From: Chthoniobacterales bacterium
GTDB taxonomy: Bacteria > Verrucomicrobiota > Verrucomicrobiia > Chthoniobacterales > Chthoniobacteraceae
Length of the DNA stretch: 64,000 bases
Direction: 5' to 3'
Assembly (NCBI GenBank): GCA_038207335.1
Contig: JBBQZX010000019.1
Coordinates: 32,001 to 96,000, forward strand
The first letter of the stretch is position 1. Each line of letters begins with the position of its first letter. The notes under the pieces are model-generated. The model saw nothing but the letters and a program-made list of their open reading frames with translations. It was not told the origin of the DNA and did no database searches. Below are positions 1 to 5,001 of this stretch, piece by piece. Position numbers and translations under genes: made by a program.

Positions 1-2000
1 AGTTTCCTTTTGCAAACGCGACGCCAAATCGGAGCAAACTTTATCCACGTCGGGGCTGTTCATCAAAAACAGCGCTTGGGGAGCCGTGACCGTTTGCGTG
101 CGCAGAGAACAGGGCGCGCGACCGTCGTCCACATCGAACGTTTGCAGGAAATTTGGCGTCACCTCGCGGCTGGAAGAATATCCGCGCACCAGGTAGGCGC
201 CGCGCCGTTGGAGATTCGCGTCGCTGCCGGCGAACGAGCGGCGACGACGATTTCCGCCGTCACCTTCACTTAAACTAAAAGATGGGCCGCCTACTTTCAA
301 ATCCAGATCACCGGCCGCCGAGTGCATGGCATCCCAAATGGGTTCCGCTTCCAGACGCTGCAATCGAAAACGCCACAGAAGGATGTCGCTCGGGTCAATC
401 TTTTGACTTCCCGCATATTCGTCGCCCGCCTCCGAAGTCCGCTGGTAAGCGTCGGAGGTGACCATCAACCGGTGCATCTGCTTCATGCTATAACCGCACT
501 GCACAAACTCTGCGGCGAGCCAATCCAACAAAGCCGGATGTGATGGCTTGCCACCGAGTTCGCCGAAATCGCTCGTGGTCCTCAAAAGACCTTCGCCGAA
601 GTGCCATTGCCATAAGCGGTTCACGGCTACTCGCGCGAAGAGCGAATTGTCCGGCGCGGTCAGCCAGTCCGCAAATGCCTCGATACGACCGTCGCGAAAA
701 TCCGGTTCCGAAGTCGCAAAGGGCCAGCCTGGTTTGACTTCATGACTCGTTTCGGGACGCAAAGGATCGCCACTCGTCAGGATGTAACTCTTTTCCTGCG
801 CGCGCATCCCATCCGCCTCCACGGTATAAAACACCGGCAGTCTCGGCCCGCGGCTTCCGGCAGTGGAACCTTCCGCATTTAATTGACTCTGCATTTCCTG
901 GTATTTCCTGCGGGCCTCCTCGGGCATCGATTCGGTGAGCTTGTCGCCATCGATGCGCAGGATGGGGAAATAGTCGTCCGCAATTTTTTGCTCCTCGACC
1001 GTTCGCTGTTTCTCCGGCTTGCGAATGACTGCCTGCGCCTCGGGGGGCAGCATCAGCACGCGTTCCTCGTAGAGTTTCGCTTGGTAAGGCGCAGCAAAGT
1101 CGCTCACGGCCTTTTCCAAGGGCGCGCGTTTCTTCTCCGCTTCCGCCATCGCTTTTCCAGCAGCGATCAGGTCCGCCGAACTTGCGAGAGTGATCTTGCT
1201 CAGGACCAGCGGATCGAACAGCGCCTTCATCGCGTAGTATTCCTTCTGCGAAATCGGGTCATACATGTGGTCGTGACATTTCGCGCAACCCACCGTCATG
1301 CCCATGAACGCCGTCGAAACCGTTCGGTAGCATTGATCGCCAGATCCTGCGGATCCTCGCCAGTACCTCGCGCCAGGAGACCGAGGGCAAATTCATCGCC
1401 AGGTCGCGGCTCTTTGCGCGAACGATAACCCGTGGCCGACATTTGCGTGCGCTCATTGGCGCGGCGACCGGTGAGTTGAAGTTGCACAAACTGATCGTAA
1501 GGCACGTCGTCGTGCAGGGCGTTGATGACCCAGTCCCGCCACAAATAGATCCCGGGCGCTGCCGTCATCCGCTCATCTGCGTCCGCATAACGCAACACGT
1601 CCAACCAATGCCGCGCGTAACGGACCGCGTGCTGCTCATCGGCGAGAAGTCGATCGACCACTTTGTCGTAAGCGTCCGTCGAATCATCCGCCAGAAACGC
1701 CTCCTGCACTGCCGGCGACGGCGGAATGCCAACTAGGTCGAGATAGACGCGACGCAACAGTGATAGCTTATCCGCAGTGCCTACTGCTTTGAGTCCGCGA
1801 TGCCTGAGTTCCGCATTGATGAAACGATCGATCGGGTTGGCTTCGGGACCGTCCGGCAACGCGGGTCGCACGACCGGTTTCAACGACCACCAACCCTCGC
1901 CCTTGGCCTTATTGGTGGGCGTCTCGCCGGTTGCAGTCAAAATCGAAGCGCCGAGAAAAATGATCCAGAGCAAAGCTTGGTTTGGAATTTTTCGGGTCAC
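1..2000 (-). pseudogene. DUF1549 (PSCyt2)/DUF1553 (PSD1) protein with a 1-nt frameshift at ~1323; 3' end runs off the window
   Basis: ORF 1296..2000 has a signal peptide and WWSLKPV, NPIDRFI, LLRRVYLDLVGIPP, ARHWLDVLRYAD. A second frame is open from 1320 to base 1 and reads VSTAFMGMTVGCAKCHDHMYDP...ARVAVNRLWQWHFGEGL...PSHPALLDWLA...APQALFLMN. Could be a sequencing error rather than a true pseudogene. Confidence 0.85.
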
Positions 2001-2497: not shown

Positions 2498-2536
2498 AAA
2501 AGCGAACGGGGCTGGCGATTGGAATCGCCAACCCCG
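2498..2536 (-). terminator. Probable intrinsic terminator after the fasciclin gene
   Basis: Minus strand CGGGGTTGGCGATT-CC-AATCGCCAGCCCCG followed by TTCGCTTTT, 13 nt past the stop codon. Confidence 0.6.
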
Positions 2537-2549
2537 CGCACAGAACATG

Positions 2550-3032
2550 TTACGGGATGAGAACGGTGTCGATGACGTGGATGACGCCGTTGCTCGCGGG
2601 GATGTCGGTCTTCACGACGTTGGCGGCACCGACGGTCACTTTTCCTGCATCGACCTTGATGGCCAATTCTTTGCCGTTCACCGTTTTGGCGTTCATGGTT
2701 TTCACATCCGCGGCCATGACTTTTCCAGCGATAACGTGGTAGGTCAGGATCGCCGTGAGCTTGTCCTTGTTCTCAGGCTTGAGCAGGCTATCGACCGTGC
2801 CTGCGGGGAGCTTTGCGAATGCTTCGTCGGTAGGTGCGAAGACGGTGAACGGCCCTTTGCCGCTCAGGGTATCAACCAAGCCGGCGGCTTTCACCGCGGC
2901 GACGAGCGTATTGAACTGGCCAGCGCCGGCAGCGACGCCGACGATCGTCTTCTCTTCCGCTGCGGAAAGATTGGAGGTGAGTATGGTTGACACCGTGGCG
3001 AAGGCCGCGGCGATGATGGCGAGTTTTTTCAT
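2550..3032 (-). CDS. Secreted fasciclin (FAS1) domain protein
   Basis: Signal peptide; [19 protein letters not shown] and [13 protein letters not shown] are the FAS1 H1/YH/H2 motifs. Confidence 0.95.
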
Positions 3033-3096
3033 AGGTTTGTTGCTTTGTTTGTTTGTTTAGTTTCGAGGGACGATGATTCGTTCTCGTGGGAAGCCA

Positions 3097-3123
3097 AACG
3101 CTTCATGCCATGGAGGCGGGTGC
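3097..3123 (-). promoter_or_regulatory. Candidate ECF promoter of the fasciclin gene (GCACCC-N17-CGTT)
   Basis: Bipartite motif 64 nt upstream of the ATG, resembling the motifs at 3371 and 4731. Confidence 0.35.
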
Positions 3124-3370
3124 GTTTTTATTTTGTGAAAATTCGCTCGGAATTCGCATCCAATTGCCTGCGCCGGGCGTTCGCGCGCAACGCGAGTTAG
3201 TCTGTCTGGCAGTCTTGGCGAATCTGCCCGGATTGTTCGCGAATCGCGGCTTTCTACTCTGTGGTGAGGCGTTGGAGATAGCGCACTTGCATGACGATGT
3301 GCTGGCTCTTCGCGAGTTCGACCTCGCGGCGCAGGAGGAAGTCCCGATTCAAAAAAATGCACTCCCGGAG

Positions 3371-3396
3371 GTATCCAGAGCAGGCGGAGCGGCGTA
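3371..3396 (+). promoter_or_regulatory. Candidate ECF promoter of the anti-sigma-PAS gene (GTATCC-N16-CGTA)
   Basis: Close to the TGATCC...CGTA type of ECF promoter; 44 nt upstream of ATG 3441. Confidence 0.45.
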
Positions 3397-3440
3397 TTCT
3401 CTTCTGTTCAACACCTTATCTCGCCAATTTTTCCGCTCCA

Positions 3441-4016
3441 ATGCTCAACGAATTCCTGCAAAACCAAGCCGCACTCTACGCGGCCGGGACAATGACGACG
3501 CAGGAGCGCGAGCAGTTTGAACTCGTCCTTGAATTTCAGCCTCAAGCCCGGGAACTGGTCGCCGGACTCGCGGAGATTGGAGCTGCGGTCATGCTGTCCA
3601 CCCAGCCACCTGCGAGCGCGGCGCCTTCGACGGGACTCAAGGAGCGCCTTTCTGCCCTGATCGCCGACCGCCCGCAGCATTCCACGCCCGTGGGCATGGT
3701 GATGTCCGGCCCGGATGGCCTCGTGCAGTGGATCAATCCTGCCTTCAGCGCGATGTGCGGATACACCCTCGAAGAGCTGCGCGGCAAGAAGCTCGGCCCG
3801 ATCTTGCAAGGCGTCGGGACCGATCGCGAAACGGCGGAGCGGATGCGTCGCGCTGTGCATGAAAACCGCCCGTGCAGCGAGACGATCCTCAATTATCATA
3901 AGGACGGCACGCCATACTGGGTCGAGGTCGCCATCACGACGATCCTCGATGACGCGGGTCAGCCCCTCTGGCTCGTCGCGCGCGAACGCGAAATCACCGA
4001 CTGCATCGCGGCGTAA
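3441..4016 (+). CDS. Anti-sigma-like N-terminal domain fused to a LOV-like PAS domain (191 aa, soluble)
   Basis: N-terminus AALYAAGTMTTQEREQFE...ARELVAGLAEIGAAV...APSTGLKERL resembles the RskA/ChrR anti-sigma domain. C-terminus WINPAFSAMCGYTLEELRGKKLGPILQGVGTD...ILNYHKDGTPYW is PAS/LOV-like. Start placed at ATG 3441. Confidence 0.8.
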   Translation: MLNEFLQNQAALYAAGTMTTQEREQFELVLEFQPQARELVAGLAEIGAAVMLSTQPPASAAPSTGLKERLSALIADRPQHSTPVGMVMSGPDGLVQWINPAFSAMCGYTLEELRGKKLGPILQGVGTDRETAERMRRAVHENRPCSETILNYHKDGTPYWVEVAITTILDDAGQPLWLVAREREITDCIAA

Positions 4017-4024
4017 GCGGCGCG

Positions 4025-4600
4025 CTAGAGTTCGGGGCCGATCACGTCCTTGAGCTTCGACATTCCGCGGCGAATCCGAGCCTTGATCGTGCCGAGCGGT
4101 TCGCCGAGGCGCTCGGCGATCTCCGTTTGCGTGAGGGAGGAAAAGAACGCGAGCTCGATGGCCTCGCGCTGGTCTTTCGAGAGTTTTTGAATCGCCTCGC
4201 GGACCAGCTTGCTCGTCTCTCCCGATGCGACCGCATCGAAGGAACTTCGGTCGTCGAACTGCTCAACCGTCTCCGACTCGCGCTGCATGTCGTCCTGCAG
4301 GCGGCTCCGGCGCTGCGTCGAGCGCAGACGGTCGATGGCCTTGTTGCGGGTGAGGGTGACTGCCCACGTGATCGGCTTGCCGCGGGTCGGGTCGTAGAGC
4401 GGTGCCTTTTCCCAAATCTGGATGAACGCATCCTGGAGCACATCCTCTGCGGCTTCCTGATTGTTCACCACGCGGTAAGCGATGGAAAACAGCACGCCCG
4501 AAAAGCAATCGTAAAGCTCCTCGAAAGCCCGCCGGTCACCCTGCGCCACCCGACGCAAAAGCGCGATCTCGGCTTCGAGTTGCTGGGGGTCGGGTTCCAT
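4025..4600 (-). CDS. ECF sigma factor, SigK-like
   Basis: Region 2 GDRRAFEELYD...AEDVLQDAFIQIW...YDPTRG...RNKAIDRLRS; region 4 QREAIELAFF...EIAERLGEPLGTIKARIRRG. Start at ATG 4600. Confidence 0.92.
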   Translation of the reverse strand: MEPDPQQLEAEIALLRRVAQGDRRAFEELYDCFSGVLFSIAYRVVNNQEAAEDVLQDAFIQIWEKAPLYDPTRGKPITWAVTLTRNKAIDRLRSTQRRSRLQDDMQRESETVEQFDDRSSFDAVASGETSKLVREAIQKLSKDQREAIELAFFSSLTQTEIAERLGEPLGTIKARIRRGMSKLKDVIGPEL

Positions 4601-4730
4601 GAGCGCCGAGAATGGTGGAACCAAGGCGTGCCAACAATACAAACCGGGTTTGCCTCCGCCGCGGCTCGGGAGTCGTTCCGTGCTTCAGCCGGCCGAGGGA
4701 TGAACGATGTGAATTTGAGGCGTCTGGTCT

Positions 4731-4756
4731 GCAAACGCAGACGTTTCGCATCCGTG
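4731..4756 (+). promoter_or_regulatory. Candidate ECF promoter of the small membrane protein gene (GCAAAC-N16-CGTG)
   Basis: Similar bipartite motif 29 nt upstream of ATG 4786. Confidence 0.3.
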
Positions 4757-4785
4757 ACATACGGCACAAAACCAAATCCAATTCC

Positions 4786-5001
4786 ATGAAACCCGCCCAA
4801 CTCAAACTGCTCAGCAATCTCTGCTTCATCCTCGGCTTTGCTTCCATCTTCGGCTCGATCGCCATCTGGTTTCTCACCGGGGGGCAGGCCATCGACACTC
4901 AGGCGCACGCTGAGCGATTCGGCATCTTCGTCGGTCTCTGGGCACCCACGTTCTTCATCCTCTCAAATCGCTTCGACCGCTACGCGGAAAAAGTGGGCTG
5001 A
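4786..5001 (+). CDS. Small membrane protein (71 aa)
   Basis: MKPAQLKLLSNLCFILGFASIFGSIAIWF...AERFGIFVGLWAPTFFIL; two hydrophobic segments; normal codon usage. Confidence 0.75.
   Translation: MKPAQLKLLSNLCFILGFASIFGSIAIWFLTGGQAIDTQAHAERFGIFVGLWAPTFFILSNRFDRYAEKVG

Follow-up and report, generated by a model that had tools for sequence, protein, structure and literature searches.

A soluble anti-sigma–PAS fusion protein encoded convergently with a SigK-like sigma factor in Verrucomicrobiota

The locus and its genes

A 64,000-nucleotide stretch of DNA from a Chthoniobacterales bacterium (Verrucomicrobiota; assembly GCA_038207335.1, contig JBBQZX010000019.1, positions 32,001 to 96,000 of the forward strand), referred to here as the window, carries a gene for a SigK-like sigma factor of the extracytoplasmic function (ECF) type and, converging with it, a gene for a protein in which an anti-sigma domain is joined to a PAS domain. 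This protein is called the fusion below. An earlier note, made from the letters of the window alone, had grouped the two genes with a fasciclin gene and a small membrane protein gene as a candidate signalling module. All four open reading frames were found where that note had placed them, and the sigma and fusion genes indeed converge, with 8 nt (4017-4024) separating their stops:

2550..3032, minus strand: fasciclin (FAS1) gene, 160 residues (PF02469, E 8.6e-43)
3441..4016, plus strand: anti-sigma–PAS gene (the fusion), soluble 191-residue protein (670 homologous clusters; below-cut-off anti-sigma matches and a PAS_9 match)
3441..3680, plus strand: class I RskA-type anti-sigma domain, residues 1-80 of the fusion (four helices, no zinc motif)
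3687..4001, plus strand: LOV-fold PAS domain of the fusion without adduct cysteine (Cys106 at 3756-3758, Cys145 at 3873-3875; His153)
4025..4600, minus strand: SigK-like ECF sigma factor of the ECF18/19 clade, 191 residues (NCBIfam and PDB matches)
4786..5001, plus strand: small membrane protein gene, 71 residues (one hydrophobic segment, no Pfam family; predicted regulon member)

The fusion start at 3441 is backed by Met1 in 120 of 120 homologues among the matches listed; a longer form of 241 residues starting at 3291 was rejected, as the homologues begin at 3441. Within the window, no intrinsic terminator was found between the convergent genes, and T4/A4 runs occur in 4 of 41 such gaps; overlapping transcripts are thus possible.

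The anti-sigma domain of the fusion

Residues 10-83 of the fusion resemble anti-sigma models of NCBIfam with scores short of the cut-off (NF052375, E 3.7e-7; PRK13920, E 9e-4), and a single-sequence PDB search with residues 1-80 returned no anti-sigma match. The structural model (predicted local distance difference test score, pLDDT, 88; predicted template modelling score 0.76; 17-row alignment) shows four N-terminal helices, at 4-15, 20-32, 34-53 and 66-75, followed by a PAS fold. When the N-terminal part was compared by hhalign with verrucomicrobial RskA proteins, the match reached 97.4% (E 1.2e-11); all five proteins of that alignment that were scanned carry RskA_C, and the verrucomicrobial RskA profile in turn matches the anti-sigma domain of RskA (4nqw_B, E 0.0015). 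The N-terminus of the fusion is an RskA-type class I anti-sigma domain. Its setting is that of a cytoplasmic protein, as the earlier note had held: the fusion has no hydrophobic window above 1.6 (maximum 1.13), and it matches PAS families only and not RskA_C (PF10099). Residues 1-80 contain no His/Cys zinc motif.

The complex predicted for fusion residues 1-80 with the sigma factor scored 0.83, while the best of three controls scored 0.00; of 157 solved complexes, 116 attain the mark applied to such scores, as do 2 of 215 mismatched pairs. Three runs share at least 90% of their contacts, and the pLDDT of the partners is at least 84. Fusion residues 11-17 are predicted to contact sigma residues 148-180, and residues 66-80 lie within the interface, a layout that in the model fits class I, with helix 1 at sigma4 and helix 4 at sigma2. 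Helix 2 has a conserved face (residues 24-36) that lies outside this predicted interface. The score shows likeness to the solved SigK-RskA complex, and the pass may come from that likeness rather than from binding by this copy. By alignment, the counterpart of the SigK L177/RskA L18 contact is Met180/Ala15, a pair that touches in the model and is hydrophobic, but is not Leu-Leu; Leu stands at fusion position 15 in 13 of 127 family members.

Several variants of the gene were encountered. In one locus (L028, G622:C5; L and G numbers are our handles for loci and genomes) the fusion gene is split over two frames at residue 91, by a frameshift or an assembly error. Tandem duplicates occur in L029/L170, L030/L043, L032 and L036; their upstream copies are divergent, bear the promoter and form a clade of their own, and Cys145 is replaced in some of them. 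Among proteins of 336-2000 residues, eight matches were found, of which seven were to the PAS only and one, a 361-residue entry with an upstream bactofilin match, is a likely read-through; this is weak evidence that longer fused forms are absent. The first 100 residues of the fusion gave no plasmid match.

Pairing of the sigma factor with the fusion

The best NCBIfam match of the sigma factor is SigK (PRK09646, 165 bits, cut-off 226), followed by PRK12519 at 163.5 bits, also below its cut-off; the best PDB match is again SigK (4nqw, E 5e-27), with Rhodobacter sphaeroides RpoE (2q1z) second. No cysteine lies past residue 101 in 30 aligned sigma factors, and the sigma4 cysteine pair is therefore missing. 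That pair is general in ECF18 and found in some ECF19 subgroups, and it does not define ECF19 (PMC7826278).

Conservation of the arrangement was followed in 79 GTDB loci, kept from the best 80 of 118 fusion matches. A sigma gene converges with the fusion within about 2 kb in 55 of these 79, and does so in 42 of the 71 evaluable loci among 80 from metagenome contigs. L005 and L054 are divergent; in the latter the sigma gene lies 5.4 kb upstream on the opposite strand. Fasciclin adjoins the pair in 19 of the 79 loci and the membrane gene in 8, and all four genes stand together in just 2. The four-gene module of the earlier note is consequently not upheld: the conserved core consists of two genes, the sigma factor and the convergent fusion, and fasciclin and the membrane gene are predicted to be variable regulon members.

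Co-occurrence points the same way as synteny. Within the order, a fusion homologue is present in 27 of 251 genomes, and the broader sigma family in 144 of 251 (a tally that includes the unpublished genome G564). A close sigma (E<=3e-85, the next at 1e-72) and a close fusion were found in the same 14 of 251 genomes, adjoining in 12 of the 14, which means that these cases represent for the most part a single cassette and do not count as 14 independent ones. In six genomes, namely this one (G000), G439, G488, G623, G528 and G366, the fusion is the sole match to the RskA profile; eight other close-type genomes hold RskA-like genes elsewhere as well. A class-wide search, in which only 11 candidates were scored per genome, gave 5 of 301 at the strict cut-off. 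The titled records of fusion homologues and the three top Atlas clusters all come from Verrucomicrobiota. Together with the predicted complex, these data make it very probable that the sigma factor and the fusion are a cognate pair.

A TPR or Dps gene, co-oriented with the fusion, may be inserted between the convergent partners (L073, L089, L090, L092, L093, L095; L047, L068), and a phage-integrase-family gene lies near the pair in L044, L057, L058, L060 and L061. Both partners are absent from the two same-genus genomes that were searched, which hints at mobility or loss.

Promoters and feedback

The following promoters were predicted in the window:

3371..3396, plus strand: ECF promoter of the fusion gene, GTATCC-N16-CGTA (top score of 3943 upstream regions in the genome)
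3097..3123, minus strand: ECF promoter of fasciclin, GCACCC-N17-CGTT, with N16 in most relatives (rank 10 of 2598 in the genome, by a matrix whose training set included fasciclin sites of relatives)
4652-4677 and 4720-4745, plus strand: two candidate ECF promoters of the membrane gene, GCCTCC-N16-CGTT and GCGTCT-N16-CGTT (rank 17 of 2598)
4609..4637, minus strand: housekeeping-type promoter of the sigma gene, TTGTTG-N17-CATTCT (ends 8 nt before the ATG, which would make the mRNA near-leaderless)

The ECF promoter that the earlier note had seen before the anti-sigma gene is confirmed as a conserved feature. The motif G[CTA]ATCC-N16-CGTA occurs in 72 of 77 training fusion upstreams and the promoter in 62 of 76 held-out metagenome loci, against 0 after shuffling. 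It satisfies the ECF18/19 target type, with ATC in the -35 and CG(TA) in the -10 element, and agrees with the published ECF18 motif TGCATCTT/CGTA (PMC7826278). The same motif precedes distant sigK-like genes (L143-L149, 13.6-20.9 bits; weaker, 11.7 bits, in L147/L151/L152), most of them with a co-oriented RskA gene; as autoregulation is usual in ECF systems, the motif can be linked with the sigma family. A relaxed form was found in 16 of 19 fasciclin upstreams (1.3 in shuffled sequence) and, facing outward from the 5' end of the sigma gene, in 17 of 57 relatives (5.1 in shuffled sequence, shuffle maximum 12). A further GCATCC-N16-CGTT site at 3156-3181 (plus strand) of the window faces the fusion gene, 260 nt 5' of its start.

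The sigma gene itself is a different case. The ECF motif lies 5' of only 1 of 57 close-clade sigma genes, and that of this genome ranks 1552 of 2598. The housekeeping promoter proposed by the earlier note fared unevenly: a scan with the sigma70 consensus found none (0), while TTG-N20-YAnnnT was present in 34 of 57 sigma upstreams (0.6 in shuffled sequence), with 8 nt to the ATG in 29 of the 34. Because the ECF motif stands before the fusion but not before the sigma gene, a negative feedback in which the sigma factor would transcribe its anti-sigma factor and not itself is well supported by the conserved sites, in line with the layout suggested earlier. We regard this promoter logic as highly likely.

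The PAS domain

PAS_9 was matched at fusion residues 83-178 (E 7.3e-16). In the model, the domain superposes on the LOV protein CagFbFP with a template modelling score of 0.93 (root-mean-square deviation, rmsd, 1.3 A) and on phot-LOV1 with Z 17.5 (rmsd 1.4, 106 aligned residues). The closest solved structures are all LOV domains; NifL, MmoS and Aer score somewhat lower, and the haem-binding PAS of DosP reaches Z 13.3 against 17.5 for LOV.

The residues typical of LOV domains are a separate matter. Yee et al. list G59, N61, R63, F64, L65, Q66, N94, N104 and Q123 as conserved (PMC4682037), and four of the nine are kept among the 127 fusion members: G59 (125), L65 (127), Q66 (121) and N94 (127). 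The N61 site holds mostly Lys and the R63 site mostly Pro, Val takes the place of N104 and Glu that of Q123, and one extra residue is inserted. At the position of the adduct cysteine (GxNCRFLQ) stand Leu (86), Pro (40) or Ile (1), and the phosphate-side Arg136 is kept in 113 of 127. Judged by the published residue filter, the domain is neither LOV nor LOV*. A canonical LOV photoreceptor was ruled out by the missing adduct cysteine and the other lost flavin contacts.

Other residues are peculiar to the family. Cys106 is present in 127 of 127 members, Cys145 in 118 and His153 in 121, while the same sites hold these residues in 6, 7 and 29 of the 213 closest PAS domains of other proteins. The 127 rows include duplicates of one gene; in a 52-row set below 72% identity, the three residues are found in 52, 47 and 48 rows. 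With a PAS that fails the LOV criteria but has two family-specific cysteines, redox sensing would appear likelier than direct photoreception. The signature of the domain belongs to a large PAS subfamily present in kinases (KPGxxLQG / A-x-E), which in P0129 and other long proteins forms tandem arrays of up to seven or more. We know of no ligand for this subfamily.

Fasciclin, the membrane gene and the wider regulon

The fasciclin protein has a hydrophobic N-terminus, likely a signal peptide, and no cysteines, and it is a predicted regulon member. Downstream of its gene lies one further feature:

2506..2537, minus strand: terminator-like hairpin of 14 pairs, 3' of the fasciclin gene (consensus match only; 7 such in the region against 4.0 in shuffles)

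The 71-residue membrane protein is a member of a large and widespread family without a name (2634 homologous clusters), of which a shorter distant relative (L055:3353-3544) follows fasciclin in nine loci.

Neighbours of the pair were called with a simple gene caller, which missed or mis-framed some genes. Those that recur in L044-L122 are lipocalin (14 loci), DPRP photolyase-related (11), FAD_binding_7 photolyase (9), fatty-acid desaturase (7), CMAS, amine oxidase and SOUL (6 each), DUF1365 (5), CrtI-type, OsmC and DUF4130 (4 each), and Dps and AhpC (3 each). At least one stress neighbour is found in 35 of 56 sigma-linked loci against 1 of 23 unlinked loci comparable in length, and a core stress set in 26 of 56 against 0 of 23, with the set picked after the loci had been seen and the related genomes not independent of one another. 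Because these neighbours are gene types of the RpoE-ChrR and LitS regulons, the wider regulon looks, from gene content, photo-oxidative rather than fasciclin-centred. Some of these neighbours are of types with a role in cyclopropane and furan fatty-acid synthesis.

In this genome the predicted regulon is small, with the fusion at rank 1, perhaps superoxide dismutase at 4, fasciclin at 10 and the membrane gene at 17 of 2598, in a noisy genome-wide prediction (16 real against 4 shuffled sites above 13 bits). Good ECF-type sites precede the superoxide dismutase gene (G000:C15:72903-73526) and a DUF4331 gene (L172:2976-4364). Superoxide dismutase sites above 12 bits were found in 4 of 14 loci of sigma-bearing genomes, one of them the discovery case, and in 0 of 16 without the sigma factor, a comparison covering mostly one of two paralogues per genome; membership of this gene in the regulon is suggestive only. 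The DUF4331 gene is perhaps a member, and DUF4331 is a listed ECF18 neighbour (PMC7826278).

About 19-28 kb before the module, a carotenoid-type cluster (L153:3563-13204, G000:C19) encodes two CrtI-like oxidoreductases, an aldehyde dehydrogenase, an acyltransferase and a glycosyltransferase; it is divergent from genes for a MerR-B12 regulator of the CarH/LitR type, an SRPBCC protein and a DNA photolyase. It is a second, separate light-response system of this genome.

Relation to known systems

The nearest relative of the pair is SigK-RskA (ECF18/ECF19) with its mpt83/mpt70 cassette, with which it shares the sigma factor, the anti-sigma domain, the promoter type and a fasciclin target. It differs in that the fusion has a PAS and lacks the membrane helix and RskA_C, and that its sigma factor is without the sigma4 cysteine pair. 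Moreover, the RskA gene is co-oriented at +1, whereas here the genes are convergent and transcribed separately, and the sigma gene has no target promoter of its own. The stimulus of SigK has been termed obscure, and the fasciclin genes of M. kansasii are light-induced (PMC9861118); in R. capsulatus, a SigK/RskA-like pair is induced by singlet oxygen (PMC7074977).

RpoE-ChrR (ECF11), the singlet-oxygen switch of R. sphaeroides, offers a second comparison, as ChrR is also a soluble class I anti-sigma factor with a second sensory-type domain. The rpoE-chrR genes form an autoregulated operon, unlike the convergent pair described here, and the fasciclin RSP1409 belongs to their regulon. The fusion lacks the zinc motif and the cupin of ChrR, with a PAS in place of the latter, and matches the ChrR model only at E 0.09. 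Kinds of gene that neighbour the pair recur in the RpoE-ChrR regulon, namely photolyase, cfaS and RSP_1090/1091 types (PMC7074977). The pair would work like RpoE-ChrR and presumably descends from SigK-RskA, and by defining features is a member of neither.

LitS (ECF18s6 in Burkholderia, ECF19s4 in Streptomyces) is a SigK-clade sigma factor with the same promoter type and with cfa, photolyase and carotenoid targets; in S. coelicolor its input comes through a separate LitR that controls transcription of the sigma gene (PMC7826278), whereas here the anti-sigma domain and a putative sensor share one chain. Precedent for a cytoplasmic domain in place of the membrane part of RskA is given by ECF19s19 (cupin) and by ECF19s7/s18 (ZAS-MDMPI) (PMC7826278). 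PAS-fused anti-sigma factors are not listed in those ECF18/19 descriptions of PMC7826278 that were examined, although its further supplement tables may list them.

With YtvA, CagFbFP, BAT-LOV*, NifL and MmoS, the fusion PAS shares the fold and part of the flavin pocket. BAT-LOV* has Pro at the adduct position (PMC4682037), as do 40 of 127 fusion members. Apart from its lack of the adduct Cys and its failure of the residue filter, the fusion is set off from LOV and LOV* proteins by its output, an anti-sigma domain on the same chain.

In a search of mainly open-access literature, no description of a PAS-fused anti-sigma factor was found, in agreement with the earlier note's impression of a new architecture. 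The soluble anti-sigma–PAS fusion with inverted feedback is apparently an undescribed variant of ECF18/19 control, real and conserved.

Evolutionary history

In a quick tree of the sigma factors, the convergent type (28 rows, support 94) joins a second type in a 39-row clade (support 99), apart from the RskA-linked sigma factors. The second type is a widespread sister sigma (L130-L142, 50-64% identity) encoded directly behind a class III aminotransferase gene (PF00202), which we take to be hemL from its motif. Within this hemL-type clade, L141 carries a full RskA gene and the others have no gene at +1, apart from remnants of 72-88 residues that consist of the RskA anti-sigma domain only and stand right after the sigma gene (L131:1280-1495, L135:1232-1495). 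Orphan fusions mostly retain the promoter. G366 has a separate arrangement, in which the sigma and fusion genes are divergent, a fasciclin fusion with the motif lies downstream, and no RskA was found.

We read these patterns as an entry of the fusion into the regulon as a second anti-sigma factor, followed by replacement of RskA; the order is a reading. It fits the description of SigK-like sigma factors without sigma4 cysteines as often having abnormal or missing RskA (PMC7509140). A more ambitious account is possible, though we hold it with real doubt: the soluble 191-residue fusion would be a complete ECF sensor switch whose LOV-derived PAS detects light or light-caused redox damage. In that account, a PAS of the large subfamily was grafted onto an RskA domain, joined a SigK regulon as a second anti-sigma factor and, on two or more occasions within Verrucomicrobiota, took the place of the membrane RskA, turning autoactivation into negative feedback.

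Proposed mechanism and alternatives

We lean slightly towards a mechanism in which the fusion holds the convergent SigK-like sigma factor inactive and likely frees it upon oxidative or photo-oxidative stress sensed by the PAS. Its starting points are the observed domains, the soluble nature of the fusion, the pairing and the promoter motifs. The sigma factor would be made at a steady level from its housekeeping-type promoter and be sequestered by the RskA-type domain in the predicted complex. As to signal and release, which we infer, the PAS would change state upon oxidation, most likely through Cys106/Cys145 or a redox cofactor, and this change would free the sigma factor directly or expose the fusion to proteolysis. 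Free sigma factor would then read the G[CTA][AG][TC]CC-N16-CG[TA][AT] promoters of the membrane gene and of fasciclin; in relatives, it would likewise read those before lipocalin, reductase and fatty-acid-modifying genes that stand beside photolyases and carotenoid genes. As it would transcribe its anti-sigma factor and not itself, the response would shut itself off. The fusion would have taken over from an ancestral membrane RskA. Taken alone, an oxidative or photo-oxidative input is reasonably probable; cysteine chemistry specifically as the sensing route is more tentative and falls short of an even prospect.

Several observations weigh against this mechanism. As regards the pairing, 23 of the 79 GTDB loci have no full sigma gene nearby (4 of these have less than 500 nt of contig downstream, and L060 has a fragment), and many distant members occur in genomes whose nearest sigma factor has its own RskA. 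As regards the regulon, beyond the late choice of the stress-gene set and the relatedness of the genomes, the core set gave a weak contrast in the shorter held-out metagenome loci (7 of 42 against 2 of 29), and sites above 9 bits precede none of the DPRP (0/11), FAD_binding_7 photolyase (0/9) or CrtI (0/5) genes. Most such stress genes were not found in this genome, and its carotenoid/photolyase cluster, 21 kb away, stands by the MerR-B12 regulator and lacks the motif. Finally, by LOV topology, Cys106 and Cys145 are presumably too far apart for one disulfide.

Among the alternatives, the PAS might bind flavin, as a Cys-less LOV or a NifL/MmoS-type domain, and photoreduction or chemical reduction would then free the sigma factor, making the fusion a direct light or redox switch. 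Signalling by reduction is possible in Cys-less LOV domains (PMC4682037), the nearest structures are those of LOV domains and then NifL, MmoS and Aer, the pocket Gly, Leu, Gln and first Asn are kept along with Arg136, and the neighbours include light-protection genes. With only four of the nine residues of Yee et al. kept, the N61, R63, N104 and Q123 sites changed, a residue inserted and the same signature found in a large kinase PAS subfamily, however, a flavin sensor seems unlikely to us.

A bound ligand made under stress, either a haem or porphyrin photosensitiser or an oxidised fatty-acid product, could equally free the sigma factor. Such a ligand would suit the presumed hemL gene beside the sister sigma clade and the SOUL haem-binding (6 loci), lipocalin (14) and fatty-acid enzyme neighbours, and the invariant Cys with the near-invariant His could ligate haem. 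The fold is nevertheless closer to flavin-binding than to haem-binding PAS domains, as the DosP comparison indicates, and we judge this possibility a little less probable than flavin.

The fusion might instead be a feedback damper, or a dual activator and inhibitor, with a PAS that serves folding, dimerisation or turnover and an input that lies elsewhere. It has the strongest promoter of the predicted regulon, the N-terminal part of RskA can both inhibit and activate SigK (PMC7509140), orphan fusions keep the promoter where the sigma factor already has a membrane RskA, and remnants reduced to the anti-sigma domain exist (L131, L135). Yet in six genomes no RskA-like protein was found besides the fusion, its sigma factor has neither the sigma4 cysteine pair nor an extension, and the PAS has invariant residues of its own that are missing from related PAS domains; a damper or dual modulator is to us marginally less credible again than a ligand sensor. 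That the genes simply travel as a cassette, with no regulation of this sigma factor by the fusion, would suit their opposite strands and separate promoters and the orphan state of most of the distant homologues, but is very improbable given the RskA homology, the predicted complex, the synteny, the six genomes with the fusion as sole RskA-like protein, and a co-occurrence that persists in two genomes of one genus with unlinked genes.

Elsewhere in the window, a DUF1549-type gene at 1-2000 (minus strand) is seemingly split into two open reading frames in different frames near 1296-1305.

Implications

To our knowledge, class I anti-sigma factors receive their signal through a membrane or periplasmic part, zinc or a cupin. 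A PAS-fused anti-sigma factor that works as proposed would open an input route new to the class, and would be the smallest switch of its type to link a sensor to transcription with two proteins. Since the fusion is small and soluble and has a defined pocket, two cysteines specific to its family and a predicted promoter, signal perception by anti-sigma factors of the ChrR and RskA types would become testable in Escherichia coli. The fusion may also lend itself to synthetic circuits, as a compact part gated by redox state or light. Moreover, it would offer a first approach to the ligand of a PAS subfamily that is very large, and it would inform the control of photo-oxidative stress in Verrucomicrobiota.

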